A stretch of DNA of 24,000 nt, taken from the NCBI GenBank assembly GCA_038062165.1, contig JBBTXQ010000052.1:11748-35747 (forward strand), written 5' to 3'. The notes under the pieces are model-generated. The model did no database searches. It saw nothing but the letters and a program-made list of their open reading frames with translations, and was not told the DNA's origin. The stretch comes from Patescibacteria group bacterium. Lineage in GTDB: Bacteria; Patescibacteriota; Minisyncoccia; Phycocordibacterales; DATDSR01. Both the position numbers and the translations under genes were made by a program. Positions 1,012 through 21,663 of the stretch are shown here, in pieces (the stretch's first letter is position 1; each line of letters begins with the position of its first letter).

Positions 1012-2115
1012 CTATTCTACCACGCCACCACCAAGACAGATATTGCTGTCATAAAACACAATTGACTGGCCGGGGGCTACAAGAACTGGCTGTTTGAATG
1101 TGACAGTGTTCCCACTTACTGTGCAGGGTAGCTTCTCGCCGTGGTAGCGGACCTGACAGGTACTAGGTACTAGGTCATAGGTATTAGGTTGAGAACCGGA
1201 GATCCAGTTTATATCTTTGAGTTTTATATCCCTCCTTTGCCCTCCCTTATTATAAGGGAGGGTCGGGGTGAGATGATTCTTTGTCACAATGAGTAGATTT
1301 TTCTCAACATCTTTACCCACCACATACTGTCCCAATATTTTCTCACCTAAGGTGTAAAACAGCGCTCCTTCATGTTCACCAATCACTTTTGTTCGAGCCC
1401 CGGCCTCGAACACTTTACCGGGCTTTGTTTTTATGTAATGTGATAGGAATTCTTTCATATCTACGTCGCCCAAAAAGCATATCCCTTGCGAATCTTTCTT
1501 GCTTGCGACCGGCAGCCGCAGCTGCCTCGCAAGCTCCCTAACTTCACTTTTCAATAAGTGCCCCACTGGGAAAATATTTTTTGATAGTTGATCTTGTGTG
1601 AGTGTCCACAAGAAATAACTCTGATCTTTAGCAGGATCAACTCCACGAAGTAGCTGTATCTCTCCCCTGCCCTCCCTTAACATAAGGGAGGGTGAGGGTG
1701 GGATAATCTGCGCATAATGCCCCGTGGCAATCGCATCAGCACCCATCTCGAGCGCTTTACGCAGAAATGCGCCGAACTTAATCTCTTTATTGCACATCAC
1801 ATCCGGGTTGGGCGTGCGACCGGACTTATATTCACTAATCATGTAATCCACCACACTCTCTTTATATTCTTTTTCTAGGTCTATTGTTACAAAGGGAATG
1901 TCTAAATGTGCCGCCACGCGCATGGCATCACGTCGCTCATTTCTCCAAGCGCAGCTTGCTCCGCGAAGCCCTGCCTTGCCGGCAGGCAGGTTTAGCGAAG
2001 CAGGAGGCGTCCATGTCTTAATAAAAGCACCCAAAACTTGAGCGCCTGCGCGTTTTAATAGTGCCGCTGACACAGCACTATCGACTCCGCCAGATAGGCC
2101 AATCATAACTCTCAT
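1012..2115 (-). CDS. mnmA: tRNA 2-thiouridine(34) synthase MnmA
   Basis: 367-aa ORF with the PP-loop GLSGGVDSAV and the motifs GRTPNPDVMCNKEIKFGAF, ATGHYA, KDQSYFL and DSQGICF. Confidence 0.93.
   Translation of the reverse strand: MRVMIGLSGGVDSAVSAALLKRAGAQVLGAFIKTWTPPASLNLPAGKAGLRGASCAWRNERRDAMRVAAHLDIPFVTIDLEKEYKESVVDYMISEYKSGRTPNPDVMCNKEIKFGAFLRKALEMGADAIATGHYAQIIPPSPSLMLREGRGEIQLLRGVDPAKDQSYFLWTLTQDQLSKNIFPVGHLLKSEVRELARQLRLPVASKKDSQGICFLGDVDMKEFLSHYIKTKPGKVFEAGARTKVIGEHEGALFYTLGEKILGQYVVGKDVEKNLLIVTKNHLTPTLPYNKGGQRRDIKLKDINWISGSQPNTYDLVPSTCQVRYHGEKLPCTVSGNTVTFKQPVLVAPGQSIVFYDSNICLGGGVVE
1154..1188. repeat. tandem heptamer repeat (TnnTAGG x5) inside mnmA
   Basis: TGACAGG TACTAGG TACTAGG TCATAGG TATTAGG, translated as PNTYDLVPSTCQ. 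Confidence 0.75.
1240..1262. repeat. palindrome CCCTCCCTTA-nnn-TAAGGGAGGG, copy 1 (in mnmA)
   Basis: 10-nt perfect arms with a 3-nt spacer and G/C-rich flanks (CCTCCTTTG / TCGGGGTGAG). Confidence 0.85.
1670..1692. repeat. palindrome CCCTCCCTTA-nnn-TAAGGGAGGG, copy 2 (in mnmA)
   Basis: The arms are identical to copy 1 and the flanks are similar (CTCCCCTG / TGAGGGTGGG). It is read in a different frame from copy 1. Confidence 0.85.
1970..1990. repeat. GC-rich palindrome CCTGCCTTGCCGGCAGGCAGG (in mnmA)
   Basis: Near-perfect 21-nt palindrome encoding NLPAGKAGL. Near-identical copies lie at 7590-7610 and 19928-19947. Confidence 0.9.
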
Positions 2116-17987: not shown

Positions 17988-18056
17988 TTTTCATCAAAAT
18001 AATATACTTTCTCGCAACACGGGGGCCCAGGAGGTCCCCTTAGTGATTTTAAAGAC

Positions 18057-20609
18057 CTACTTTTTCAGAACTCTGCGTAGATACTTTGCGGTGTGAGATA
18101 TGTGTGTGGTGGGCAGGAAGGAAATATCCCGAGGTGTGCCTTTGGCTACAATCTTGCCGCCCTCATCGCCGCCTTCGGGACCCATGTCTATTATCCAGTC
18201 ACATGATTTGATCATATCCATGTTGTGCTCTATTACTATCACTGTATTGCCCCTATTTACCAATTTTTGCAAAATTTCTATAAGCTTTTTTACATCTTCG
18301 TAATGCAAGCCTACCGTTGGCTCATCTAAAAGGTAAATAGTTTTTGTAGTAAGAGGTCGGTATAACTCTGAACTAATTTTCACCCTCTGCGCTTCGCCAC
18401 CAGAAAGAGTTGTGGCACTCTGGCCAAGTTCGAGATAACTAAGACCAACACTATCAAGTGAATTTAGACGATCAGAGATGGCCGGGATATCTTCGAAGAA
18501 TTTAACTGCCTCCTCTACTGTCATCTTCAGAATCTCGTGAATATTCTTTTTCTTATACGTGACTTCAAGCGTATCTTTATTGAAGCGCTTCCCGCCGCAG
18601 ACGTCGCAAGGCACATAGACAGTGGGCAGGAAGTGCATCTCGACAGCTATCTCTCCATTCCCTTCACAGGTCTCACAACGGCCACCGTTCTTAACGTTGA
18701 ATGAAAATCTTGATGGCCCCCAACCTCGAAAGCGTGCCTCTTCCGTTTCGGCGAAAATATCGCGTATATGCGACCAAGCCCCTGTATAAGTGGCTGGGTT
18801 GGATCTGGGTGTACGGCCAATGGGGCTCTGGTCTATCAAGATCGCTCGACCCAGATATTCAGTGCCCGAGAATGTGCCCACATTGTAAATTTGATTTGAT
18901 CTGTAACGACGATCAAATTTGGCTTGCAGATTCTTGTGCAAGATCTCGTAGAGGAAGCTGGACTTGCCCGAACCAGACACGCCAGTAAGAGCGACCAGCC
19001 TACCCAATGGCACTTCAATATTTAAATTTTTAATGTTAAATACATTGCCACCTTGAATTTTTATCGCGCCCTTATCTTGCGTACGATACTCATCAGGAAG
19101 TTCAACTCTTTGTTCACCGCGCAGATAATCAACTGTTGTTGAGTTAAATGTGTTCTTTTTGGCAGTTAACAAATGCTCTGTCCAGTTGGCCACAACTATC
19201 TTACCCCCGTGCACGCCGGCGCCCGGGCCAATATCTACCAAGTAATCGCTCGAAAAAATTGTGTCCTCATCATGTTCTATCACAATAATTGTGTTACCAA
19301 GATCGCGCAACTCGTGCAAGGTCTTGATAAGCAAATCATTATCGCGGCTATGCAAGCCAATAGTAGGCTCATCTAGTACGTAGAGCGTACCCACTAAACG
19401 TGAGCCCAACTGGGAAGCTAGTCTGATTCTTTGCGCTTCGCCGCCCGAAAGTGTGTTGGCCCTCCGATCGAGAGCTAAATAACCTAGACCAACGTCGTTC
19501 ATGAATTTAAGCCGTGATTCGATTTCCTTAATTACCACAGCACTAATCCCCTTCTCGCGGACAGTTAACCTAGTCTTGCTGAAAAACTCAATTGCATCGC
19601 GAATAGCCAGCGCGCTCACTTGCACTATGTTCTTATTCCCAATGAGCACAGCCAGAGCCTCTTTGCGTAGTCTTACACCGGAACATTCTTCGCATGGTTC
19701 TTCGCCAAACATATGCTTGGTGCCCAAGCCATGACAGACCGGGCATGCACCAAATGGAGAGTTGAATGAGAATAACCTTGGCTCAACTTCTGGAAACGAG
19801 AAGCCGTCCCGAGGGCACGAGAACTTACTCGACATCAAGAATTCGCTATCTTTCGAGATAATCATCACCACACCGTCCGCTTCATTCAGCGCCTTCTCTA
19901 CTGATTCTGACAATCTCTGTGTGAATTCCTGCCTGCCGGCAGGCAGGCTTTCCTCACTAGCATCCAGCTCGTCTACTAGTACTTCAATAGAGTGCTTCTT
20001 ATTTTTATCCAGAATTATCTGCTCGCGTAAGTTTTTAAAAACTCCGTCTACTCGCACTGTTCTGTAGCCTTTGTTAAGTAGATCATAGAGAAGCTGATAG
20101 TATTCGCCCTTTCTGCCTCGCACAACCGGCGCAAGTATCTTCACATTTCCCGAAACCGGGTTTCGGGAATCCTTAGAAACCCGGTTTCTGATTGCGTTTA
20201 TTATCTCTTGGGGCGCGAGCTTCTCGATCTCTTGCCCACACACCAGACAATGCGGCCGGCCAATACGCGCATATAAGACGCGCAAGTAATCATAAATTTC
20301 TGTAATCGTGGCGACAGTTGATCTGGGATTATTTGAACGCGACTTCTGGTCAATCGAGATTGCAGGGCTAAGTCCCTCTATCTCGTCTACATCGGGCTTC
20401 TGCATTTGCCTAATAAACTGCCTCGCGTACGAGGAGAGCGACTCGACATAGCGCCTCTGACCTTCGGCGAAGATAGTGTCGAAGGCCAAACTTGACTTGC
20501 CCGATCCAGAGAGACCTGTGAAGACAACCATCTTGCCCCGTGGCAAGTCCACGTTTACATTCTTAAGATTGTGGGTGCGAGCACCCTTTATTTTGATCCA
20601 GTCCTGCAA
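18057..20609 (-). CDS. uvrA: excinuclease ABC subunit A (850 aa, insertion domain apparently absent)
   Basis: Two ABC modules ([18 protein letters not shown], and LSGGEAQR twice) plus zinc modules (CxxC pairs). Confidence 0.95.
19928..19947. repeat. GC-rich palindrome CCTGCCTGCCGGCAGGCAGG (in uvrA)
   Basis: Perfect 20-nt palindrome, equal to the mnmA/leuS element minus one T. It encodes SLPAGRQE. Confidence 0.9.
20148..20189. repeat. two adjacent related palindromes inside uvrA
   Basis: TCCCGAAACCGGGTTTCGGGA (20148-20168) and AGAAACCCGGTTTCT (20175-20189), translated as [15 protein letters not shown]. Confidence 0.8.
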
Positions 20610-20615
20610 GTTAGT

Positions 20616-21296
20616 CTATAGAGCGACGAAGCTTGAGGCAACCATCTTGCCACCTTGCGTAATAGGCACATCTAGGTGGTAATCGAACTGCTTGTCGCCA
20701 TCGTCGTTGTGAATTACAACAAAATAAGTTTTGCCACTGATTGTATTGCGAAGGACTTCAATCTGACCAGAAGAGTAAGAACCCGGATCGAATCTCTGAG
20801 CACCAAGCATCCAACCGGGATTGCCCGACTCATCTGCATCGTGCACCACCGCCCAACCACTCGTGCTAATCGTAATAGCATCTAGATTAACTATATTGCC
20901 TGCGGGCTGATTGCTCACGCTCACAGAATTAGCGCCTGTAACATTTGCAGTCACAGTTTGGCTACTTGCATTAGTAACAGTGCCCTGTACCTGACCACCT
21001 AAATTCAAACCACCAGTTACGCCTGTTGCCTCTGGGCTAGTCTCATCAGTCCCTGTCTGGTTCGTGTCGCTCGTATTCACATCATCTGTATTTGGAGCTT
21101 CTGTTTTTGGTGCGGTAACGTATGAGGCAATAATCCAGATAGCCAAGATTGTGATCACTAAATAAAGCCAATGTTCTTTTCTCATGCCAGTTTTATTAGC
21201 ACTATTAATCTCCTTGACATTACTATTAAAAGTTTGCGTTCTAGAATCCTTCCCAGGATTCTGTGCTTGGTTTGTATTCATGGCCGCAATATACAC
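20616..21296 (-). CDS. membrane-anchored extracytoplasmic protein with a Thr/Asn/Ser-rich linker and a C-terminal beta-rich domain
   Basis: 226 aa with a single TM helix ([18 protein letters not shown]) and a low-complexity linker. The start could be the internal Met at 21281. Confidence 0.65.
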
Positions 21297-21311
21297 CTAA
21301 TCTGAGTAAAT

Positions 21312-21663
21312 GAAAAGGGGTCCTCTGCTTACGCTTTGGTACCCCCGCGCTTCGGCCCTCGAAAGGGCTTGGCACTTGTGGTCTCAGCTTGCGCCGAGTT
21401 TTTTCTCCTCCCACCGTGGAGGGTCGTTTTCCTGTTGGACCCCGAAGGGACAGGAAAGCACGTGATCCGAAGGACACCCCTCGGTGTTAGAGCCTTGCGA
21501 CTCCAACTGCTACCCGCCGTTGGAACAGCGAGTGCTACCCAGAGGAAATCCTCCAGACTTCCGGTCCGAAGGCCTGAAGCGTGCACGACCTTCCCAAGGT
21601 CACCGCGGATTGCCTTGCGACTCTCCGAAGTGCCTTGGGAATCTTCTCTTGCGTCCTGATCCT
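21312..21663 (-). ncRNA. large GC-rich structured RNA candidate, class unknown
   Basis: Read on the minus strand it has several UUCG loops (for example CCC-UUCG-GGG and GCCCU-UUCG-AGGGC) and GCAA loops (GAGUC-GCAA-GGCUC, CUCGGC-GCAA-GCUGAG). It has long helices UUCCCAAGG/CCUUGGGAA and UUUCCUGU/ACAGGAAA. A promoter lies upstream and a hairpin plus U-tract at the 3' end. Overlapping ORFs on both strands are not protein-like. Confidence 0.6.

Follow-up and report, generated by a model that had tools for sequence, protein, structure and literature searches.

Palindromic elements inside mnmA of a Patescibacteria genome belong to a dispersed family associated with DUF559 nuclease genes

Palindromic repeats lying in frame within genes are known from Rickettsia as Rickettsia palindromic elements (RPEs; Ogata et al. 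2000/2002 as summarised in PMC10969869), and intragenic copies of repetitive extragenic palindromes (REPs) have been reported across many bacteria, some of them in genes for repair, tRNA synthetases and tRNA modification (Di Nocera et al. 2013, PMC3733652). Here, we describe two palindromic elements inside mnmA, the first complete gene of a 24,000-nucleotide stretch of DNA (the window) from a genome of the Patescibacteria, or Candidate Phyla Radiation (CPR). Both belong to a family of dispersed repeats that also brackets genes encoding DUF559 nucleases. The mnmA palindromes are probably gene-less copies of this selfish family, comparable to MITEs (miniature transposable elements with inverted repeats), with a full-length form that carries the DUF559 gene, and they are tolerated in loops of the host protein.

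The family resembles RPEs in several respects: its palindromes are dispersed in a reduced genome, lie in frame in unrelated housekeeping genes, add peptides compatible with the fold and fall into several subfamilies. It differs from them in its patescibacterial instead of alphaproteobacterial host, in a nested architecture made of an outer repeat around an inner hairpin, and in having a gene-carrying DUF559 form, no autonomous partner being known for RPEs. With units of 45-70 nt as opposed to about 100-150 bp for RPE-1, it is also set apart by size. A sequence-only reading of the window had proposed an RPE-like element that colonises open reading frames (ORFs) with more than one frame open. 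This proposal is supported by the dispersed family (24 copies, seven of them in unrelated conserved genes, with some orthologous sites empty) and by the unequal length of the orthologous loops.

REPtrons and REPINs consist of a gene for a REP-associated tyrosine transposase (RAYT, of the Y1 type) flanked by inverted copies of a dispersed repeat. The family described here shares this layout of a small nuclease-type gene between inverted copies of a genome-dispersed repeat, but the flanked gene encodes a DUF559 PD-(D/E)XK nuclease and not an HUH/Y1 transposase. Free-standing homing endonuclease genes include Vsr-like (EDxHD) enzymes. Similarly to these genes, the full-length form is a selfish cassette whose sole gene encodes a nuclease of the restriction-enzyme/Vsr fold, and it can lie in frame in an essential gene (tgt, in genome G018). 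The presence or absence of a cassette at one intergenic site and the repeated refilling of the same loops would also be compatible, as indirect signs, with homing, in which a nuclease cuts the allele lacking the element and repair copies the element in. Unlike homing endonuclease genes, the cassettes have no intron or intein context, and they come with hairpin-containing terminal repeats and many gene-less derivatives.

Correia elements of Neisseria have a TA target. They are an example of MITEs (review PMC10969869), with which the family has in common terminal inverted repeats, small size, lack of coding capacity, T..A flanks, many copies, occasional fusion to ORFs, and ends shared with a longer gene-carrying element of the same genome (four DUF559 cassettes). 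The units are much shorter than those of Correia-type MITEs, and the full-length form encodes DUF559 and not a recognised transposase. REPs tagged with CGTC lack a dedicated transposase (PMC3733652, where REPtrons are also discussed). Although selfish DNA inside genes has long been known from Rickettsia, the DUF559 partner gene seen here is different and apparently undescribed; a full-text literature search found no paper linking DUF559, mentioned in 25 papers, to palindromic repeats and no description of such elements in Patescibacteria/CPR.

Two nested palindromes in loops of MnmA

The assembly carrying the window (G000; 663 kb, 53 contigs, 45% G+C, 90% completeness) was compared with three genomes of the same genus (G001, G002 and G003) and with 118 Patescibacteria MnmA homologues. 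Relatives matched through MnmA carry the names Paceibacterota or Patescibacteria. The mnmA product matched solved MnmA structures (PDB 9hlv, 2hma and 2der) over its whole length (E 1e-78 to 1e-75). Its PP-loop SGGVDS, DVMC and GICF catalytic-cysteine motifs are intact, and the catalytic columns are invariant in the 118 homologues.

The sequence-only reading had reported a palindromic core with identical 10-nt arms, CCCTCCCTTA-N3-TAAGGGAGGG, at two places in mnmA, and exact matches were found at both (Table 1). No third CCCTCCCTTA-NNN-TAAGGGAGGG site was found in the window with up to 2 mismatches allowed (0 expected from 100 shuffles). The same reading described units of about 40 nt. The repeated unit was confirmed but is larger: each core sits in the middle of a nested palindrome that is 47 nt long and consists of an outer repeat (ATCYCWCCC), a 2-4-nt linker, a 10-bp hairpin, a second linker and the opposite outer repeat (GGGWGRGAT). 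On the coding strand, copy 1 reads ATCTCACCCC-ga-CCCTCCCTTA-taa-TAAGGGAGGG-caaa-GGAGGGAT and encodes LTPTLPYNKGGQRRD, and copy 2 reads ATCCCACCC-tca-CCCTCCCTTA-tgt-TAAGGGAGGG-ca-GGGGAGAGAT and encodes IPPSPSLMLREGRGE(I). The sequences flanking the two copies show no mutual similarity.

Table 1 Positions of mnmA and of its two palindromic elements in the window
Feature	Position	Strand	Description
mnmA (tRNA 2-thiouridine(34) synthase), 367 aa	1012..2115	-	ORF list, PDB matches and 118 homologues
Copy 1, complete 47-nt gene-less element	1228..1274	.	nhmmer family match, E 6e-11; flanks T..G
Copy 1, inner hairpin (core)	1240..1262	.	11-bp perfect stem (10-nt arms plus one closing pair), 1 base unpaired; core loop TTA
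Copy 2, complete 47-nt gene-less element	1658..1704	.	inverted repeat I2, 23-nt arms; nhmmer E 2e-11; flanks T..A
Copy 2, inner hairpin (core)	1670..1692	.	10-bp perfect stem, 3-nt loop (ACA)

The core is translated in two different phases of the mnmA ORF, as had been noticed from the sequence: copy 1 gives ..HLTPTLPYNKGGQRRDI.. (TLPYNKGGQ) and copy 2 gives ..IIPPSPSLMLREGRGEI.. (PSLMLREG). The accompanying idea of a stop-free, multi-frame palindrome held only in part. More than one phase is open, but not all of them: the TAA of the right arm closes one frame per orientation and some outer repeats add a TGA. About three of the six frames are open across the full unit, and at most two of the three frames on a strand can be open.

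Both palindromes occupy segments of MnmA that vary widely in length. Solved-structure homologues are 8 residues shorter at the site of copy 2 (site 2), where the sequence-only reading had pointed to a shorter homologue, and 6 residues shorter at the site of copy 1 (site 1). Orthologous segments of equal length were not seen at either site. Over the 118 homologues, the HYA..KDQ segment at site 2 ranged from 14 to 55 residues (27 in G000), with 14 of the sequences at the minimum of 14, and the site 1 segment ranged from 22 to 50 residues with a mode of 24 (29 in G000). Site 2, the β-hairpin loop after ATGHYA (window positions ~1640-1720), is a sink for insertions, with 1-41 extra residues of very diverse sequence in 104/118 homologues. 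Many of the site 2 peptides resemble translated palindromes, for example TPSPSPYRKERGG, APSYSKRGIQGG and FPPDKGGLRG. The open frame and the conserved host gene suggest that the inserts are translated as part of MnmA.

An AlphaFold model computed from the 118-sequence alignment (predicted local distance difference test, pLDDT, 88.6; predicted template modelling score, pTM, 0.88) displayed the inserts as the three coil segments of lowest confidence; a model from 18 sequences (pLDDT 59) was too poor and was not used. Site 2 corresponds to residues 136-150, the loop of a β-hairpin formed by residues 131-135 and 151-154. Site 1 corresponds to residues 276-292, between the strands 271-275 and 293-301, with a pLDDT below 50. 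Mapping onto a structure, from which surface loops had been expected, thus placed both palindromes in loops between β-strands.

The third segment, residues 34-52, holds an unrelated 21-nt palindrome insert. This in-frame insert, LNLPAGKAGLRGAS (window positions 1970-1990), is centred on the palindrome CCTGCCTTGCCGGCAGGCAGG, which belongs to a separate family represented in the genome by six perfect copies of 20 nt; 100/118 MnmA homologues have a minimal segment of 6 residues at this site. A heptamer-like tandem array (TACTAGG/TCATAGG/TATTAGG) also lies in frame in mnmA at window positions 1154-1188, 40 nt from copy 1, and other short tandem repeats are found at site 1 in two MnmA proteins of metagenomic relatives, P0002 and P0003.

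The dispersed family and its DUF559 cassettes

A search of G000 with nhmmer (threshold E<=2e-5) detected 24 copies of the family on 17 contigs. The search for further arms recommended by the sequence-only reading was therefore productive, since 22 copies lie on 16 other contigs, which argues against a local duplication. The outer inverted repeat has the consensus A(T/A)CYCWCCC / GGGWGRG(A/T)T. It is separated from the inner hairpin by an optional 13-nt spacer, GGACTTCGTCTCG, on one or both sides, or else by a linker of 2-4 nt. The hairpin itself is CCCTCYCTTA-loop-TAAGRGAGGG or a variant such as CCCCCTCTTA, ACCTCTCTTA or CCCTCCCCTTA. A perfect stem of at least 9 bp was found in 22/25 hairpins despite at least six stem variants, indicating that changes in one arm are mirrored in the opposite arm.

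Seven copies are in frame within Pfam-verified genes, encoding MnmA (two copies), IleS, MurB, RNase R, PepA (leucyl aminopeptidase) and RecG. The other 17/24 are intergenic or flank DUF559 genes. Long ORFs cover about 80% of the genome, so that 7/24 copies inside genes amounts to a strong depletion (P ~1e-7), as expected from selection against most intragenic insertions. The base at position -1 is T in 11/12 copies and the base at +1 is A in 8/12, which fits a TA target and fits a longer palindrome equally well. An Rfam scan of the four cassette loci and two foreign loci returned no relevant family, the only matches being sub-threshold plant miRNA-precursor (MITE-like) entries.

The family also bears some similarity to GTAG- and CGTC-tagged REPs, 20-40-bp hairpins with an unpaired tag at one end, which are mostly intergenic with a minority in ORFs. 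However, the tag of CGTC REPs (CGTC, or TGTC/CCTC) stands directly at the stem, whereas CGTC is found here within the 13-nt spacer and only in long-form copies; neither mnmA copy of G000 has it, and their G001 orthologues do. Stems of CGTC REPs measure 8-9 bp and start with A-T, their loops have 4-5 nt and their tail is CCA-like, as compared with stems of 10-12 bp starting with C-G, loops of 1-4 nt and no CCA in the solo units of 45-70 nt described here. The conserved tag is A(A/T)CTCACCC(C) instead of a tetranucleotide. Membership in the CGTC REPs (CGTC-1 to CGTC-4) was rejected on these stem, loop and tail features.

All four DUF559 (PF04480) genes of G000 are bracketed on both sides by family hairpins (eight copies) with the outer repeats on the outside. 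The resulting cassettes of ~0.45 kb have the order outer repeat, (spacer), hairpin, DUF559, hairpin, (spacer), outer repeat, with outer repeats of 9-10 nt and pyrimidine/purine hairpins of 10-11 bp. Their product is a 120-aa DUF559 nuclease (PD-(D/E)XK, Vsr-like) whose nearest solved relative is 3hrl, an 'endonuclease-like protein'. The four proteins share 49-60% mutual identity, appear intact and retain the conserved D..E.D nuclease motifs. The cassette on contig C15, ATCCCACCC..CCCTCCCTTA..DUF559..CCCTCGCTTAgttTAAGGGAGGG..GGGTGGGAT, matches the mnmA copies in both outer repeat and hairpin subtype. The 5' hairpin of the cassettes is located just before the start codon, and the C15 DUF559 gene takes its stop codon from the 3' hairpin, in the form of that hairpin's TAA. 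Within a cassette, each hairpin repeats the other in direct and in inverted orientation at once; a deletion between them would leave exactly a solo unit, the relationship of a MITE to its parent element.

Hairpins flank DUF559 genes in other genomes too. Among the strong DUF559 genes of the order, 13/14 (from 8 genomes) are flanked by pyrimidine/purine hairpins whose sequence is genome-specific. About 8-9 of 10 DUF559 genes are hairpin-flanked in an Uhrbacteria genome, a Saccharibacteria genome and a Hyphomicrobiales metagenome-assembled genome (MAG), and one of those 10 loci has exactly CCCTCCCTTAcctTAAGGGAGGG plus TAACCCACCCC. In G018, a complete cassette (L042, C4:5924-6235) made of hairpin, nuclease gene and hairpin, with the outer repeats CCCCACCC/GGGTGGGG, lies in frame inside tgt (tRNA-guanine transglycosylase) within a 556-aa open frame. 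The DUF559 gene ycjD of E. coli K-12, considered as support for a general rule, was rejected: a perfect 17-nt inverted repeat overlaps its start (L178:6758-6802) and the 3' partner is absent.

Other palindrome families are associated with Y1 transposase genes in G000. There are 10 Y1_Tnp (PF01797) hits, eight of which are ORFs of ~174-240 aa. None of the 10 is flanked by the mnmA-type family; the flanking palindromes are ACTTGGCGG.., CCGGTTACC.. and CGAAGGTT.. instead. At least four Y1 ORFs have palindrome families of their own (C19:12021-12867, C41:17804-18508, C35:3739-4443 and C27:3938-4845), with the palindromes ACTTGGCGG..CCGCCAAGT, CCGGTTACC.., CGAAGGTTAAACCTTCG and CCGGAGGGTTACCCTCCGG. 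The arrangement resembles that of REPtrons, as if several REP/RAYT systems coexisted in one CPR genome. Two of the genes hosting the mnmA-type family carry domain inserts as well: recG has a PDDEXK_3 (PF13366) domain between the helicase motifs (contig C18, ~44300-46900) and ileS a His_Phos_1 (PF00300) domain (contig C19, ~18000-21500).

Site occupancy in relatives and wider distribution

Orthologous sites differ in occupancy among relatives. Both mnmA sites are filled in G001, with the 13-nt spacer that is missing from the G000 copies, and both are without the family in G003, where site 1 contains another perfect palindrome, TTACTGAGGGGTCaGACCCCTCAGTAA. Site 2 is filled by the AACTCACCC/CCCTCTCTTA subtype in P0002 and P0003 and is empty in P0010, another metagenomic MnmA. 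The IleS site is filled by different forms in G000, G001 and G002 (54, 45 and 57 nt), with the spacer on the right, absent and on the left, respectively, and is empty in G003. In MurB, the element is present in G000 and G001, and the G002 site is empty. Only G000 has the RNase R copy, which matches the G000 MurB copy at 47/51 positions; the RNase R site is empty in G001 and G002 and holds an unrelated ACTTGG..CCAAGT palindrome in G003. Likewise, a cassette between dprA and serS, upstream of serS, is seen in G000 alone; its place is taken in G001 and G002 by a 17-nt spacer, TTTGCTATTATATTAGC. The empty serS site is TA-rich.

Two further forms were seen at site 2. In P0003 (L047), the spacer is replaced by a small hairpin, TCCCGCTgaaAGCGGGA, giving a palindrome nested in a palindrome within the gene. 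P0007 (L048), also from a metagenomic relative, has the outer repeat alone, a 22-nt perfect palindrome TAACTCACCCCGGGGTGAGTTA of about the native turn length. The inner hairpin is missing, and this form may be what a deletion or an excision left behind, or else the element in minimal form. No solo outer palindrome of this type was found in G000.

The two copies in mnmA predate the split between G000 and G001. The element DNA is 83-84% identical between these genomes (82/98), compared with 65% for the gene as a whole and 41% for its third codon positions (P=3e-5). Such an excess of identity indicates either that the elements are younger than the species split, through re-insertion or conversion, or that their DNA is constrained.

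Among 201 genomes sampled from the order, G000 and the same-genus G002 alone have the exact core; 198 others are without it. Across 185,579 species genomes, it was found in at least 119 stretches, with about 4 expected by chance. The hosts include Patescibacteria, Paenibacillus/Fontibacillus, Calditrichia, Hyphomicrobiales, Gammaproteobacteria, Bacteroidia, a Methanoregula MAG and others. Exact cores of other phyla are mostly hairpins with a one-sided tag (76/94), for example GGGGTGAGTTA, GGGGTGGGTTA and GGGGAGGGATC. In a gammaproteobacterial MAG (L106:6484-6567), the end of a contig carries head-to-tail repeats of the tag-plus-hairpin unit TAACTCACCCCaaaCCCCTCTCTTAaacTAAGAGAGGGGcaagtag, with a period of 46 nt.

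Origin of the mnmA palindromes

If the mnmA palindromes are gene-less members of the DUF559-carrying family, a deletion between the two hairpins of a cassette would produce the 45-70-nt solo unit. The DUF559 nuclease is the candidate mobilising enzyme, as suggested by the cassette architecture and the co-occurrence of gene and repeat. It might supply a break or nick allowing the element to be copied into new TA-rich sites, and solo units might be mobilised in trans. Copies would land all over the genome, and the intragenic survivors would be those that keep the frame open and sit in indel-tolerant surface loops, where they would be translated as ~15 extra residues. Arm symmetry could be kept by intra-strand templated repair or by conversion from other copies.

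It seems unlikely that the palindromes are ordinary REP-type repeats moved in trans by a Y1 tyrosine transposase (RAYT/IS200-like), with DUF559 as a passenger or a site of hairpin accumulation. Y1/HUH enzymes are the only known processors of REP hairpins (PMC3733652), the CGTC of long-form copies stands three bases from the stem, and at least four of the 10 PF01797 hits in G000 have palindrome families in a REPtron-like arrangement. However, the mnmA-type family flanks 0/10 of these Y1 genes, but every DUF559 gene of G000 and most elsewhere. Family copies, DUF559 genes and Y1_Tnp hits numbered 24, 4 and 10 in G000, 8, 2 and 3 in G001, 11, 1 and 7 in G002, and 0, 0 and 13 in G003. Copy number across the genus tracks DUF559 and not Y1 transposases, G003 having the most Y1 hits and no family copy, and a RAYT/Y1 partner gene was judged unlikely on these grounds. 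No TnpB was found when alternative partner genes were considered.

We also consider it distinctly unlikely that the hairpins are selected cis-elements, such as transcription control or termination structures or DUF559 binding sites, with the intragenic copies as by-products or expression tuners. Covariation and perfect pairing of the stems, conservation of the elements at every codon position far in excess of the gene around them, and cassette hairpins that abut the start codon and, in C15, supply the stop codon would all fit a function in cis. By contrast, the hairpins have neither an Rfam family nor a T-run terminator tail. Their presence at orthologous sites differs even between close species, relatives carry unrelated palindromes in the same loops, the IleS site holds structurally different forms in three species, and the occurrence across phyla is patchy. 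An origin of the mnmA palindromes at their present sites, through local duplication or through template-switch errors during replication of a hypervariable loop, is highly improbable. Both sites are extreme indel hot spots with many different palindromes and short tandem repeats in relatives, and the heptamer array is only 40 nt from copy 1. Nevertheless, 22 other copies with the same nested architecture are found on 16 other contigs, the flanks of the two mnmA copies are dissimilar and the 23-nt core recurs in many phyla. Local duplication was ruled out as the origin of the mnmA copies by the dispersed family and the unrelated flanks.

Several points weigh against mobilisation of the family by DUF559. 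Of 94 exact cores in other phyla, just 1 has a DUF559 gene within 150 nt, and no ORF recurs beside these cores, indicating that the hairpin module spreads or persists widely without an adjacent DUF559 gene. The association of DUF559 with hairpins holds from the gene side, not from the hairpin side in other phyla. The correlation within the genus comes from four related genomes only, and the 10 Y1 (IS200/RAYT-like) genes of the same genome might act in trans. The T..A flanks may merely extend the palindrome, a target-site duplication being indistinguishable from this. Insertions often substitute several native loop residues instead of being clean additions, and we know of no activity of a DUF559 protein on hairpins or in transposition.

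Only tentatively do we extend the DUF559-driven explanation to other lineages. In this extension, DUF559 (Vsr-like PD-(D/E)XK) nucleases mobilise widespread hairpin-ended mini-elements, and the gene-less derivatives are REP/RPE-like palindromes from Patescibacteria to Paenibacillus, Calditrichia and Alphaproteobacteria. If so, this would be a nuclease-driven, transposase-free kind of prokaryotic mobile DNA, and DUF559 could fill the place of the partner that is missing for those REP classes described as having no transposase of their own.

Collectively, the data presented show, in a Patescibacteria (CPR) genome, the in-frame palindromic insertion that textbooks treat as a peculiarity of Rickettsia. 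There, this process seems to be a leading origin of small insertions in proteins, with extra residues at site 2 in 104/118 MnmA homologues. DUF559 is a very common protein to which no role has been assigned, and the cassettes provide a testable candidate for the movement of hairpin repeats and a possible function for DUF559. The inserts enlarge and diversify loops of essential enzymes, and may mislead alignment, annotation and structure prediction of CPR proteins.

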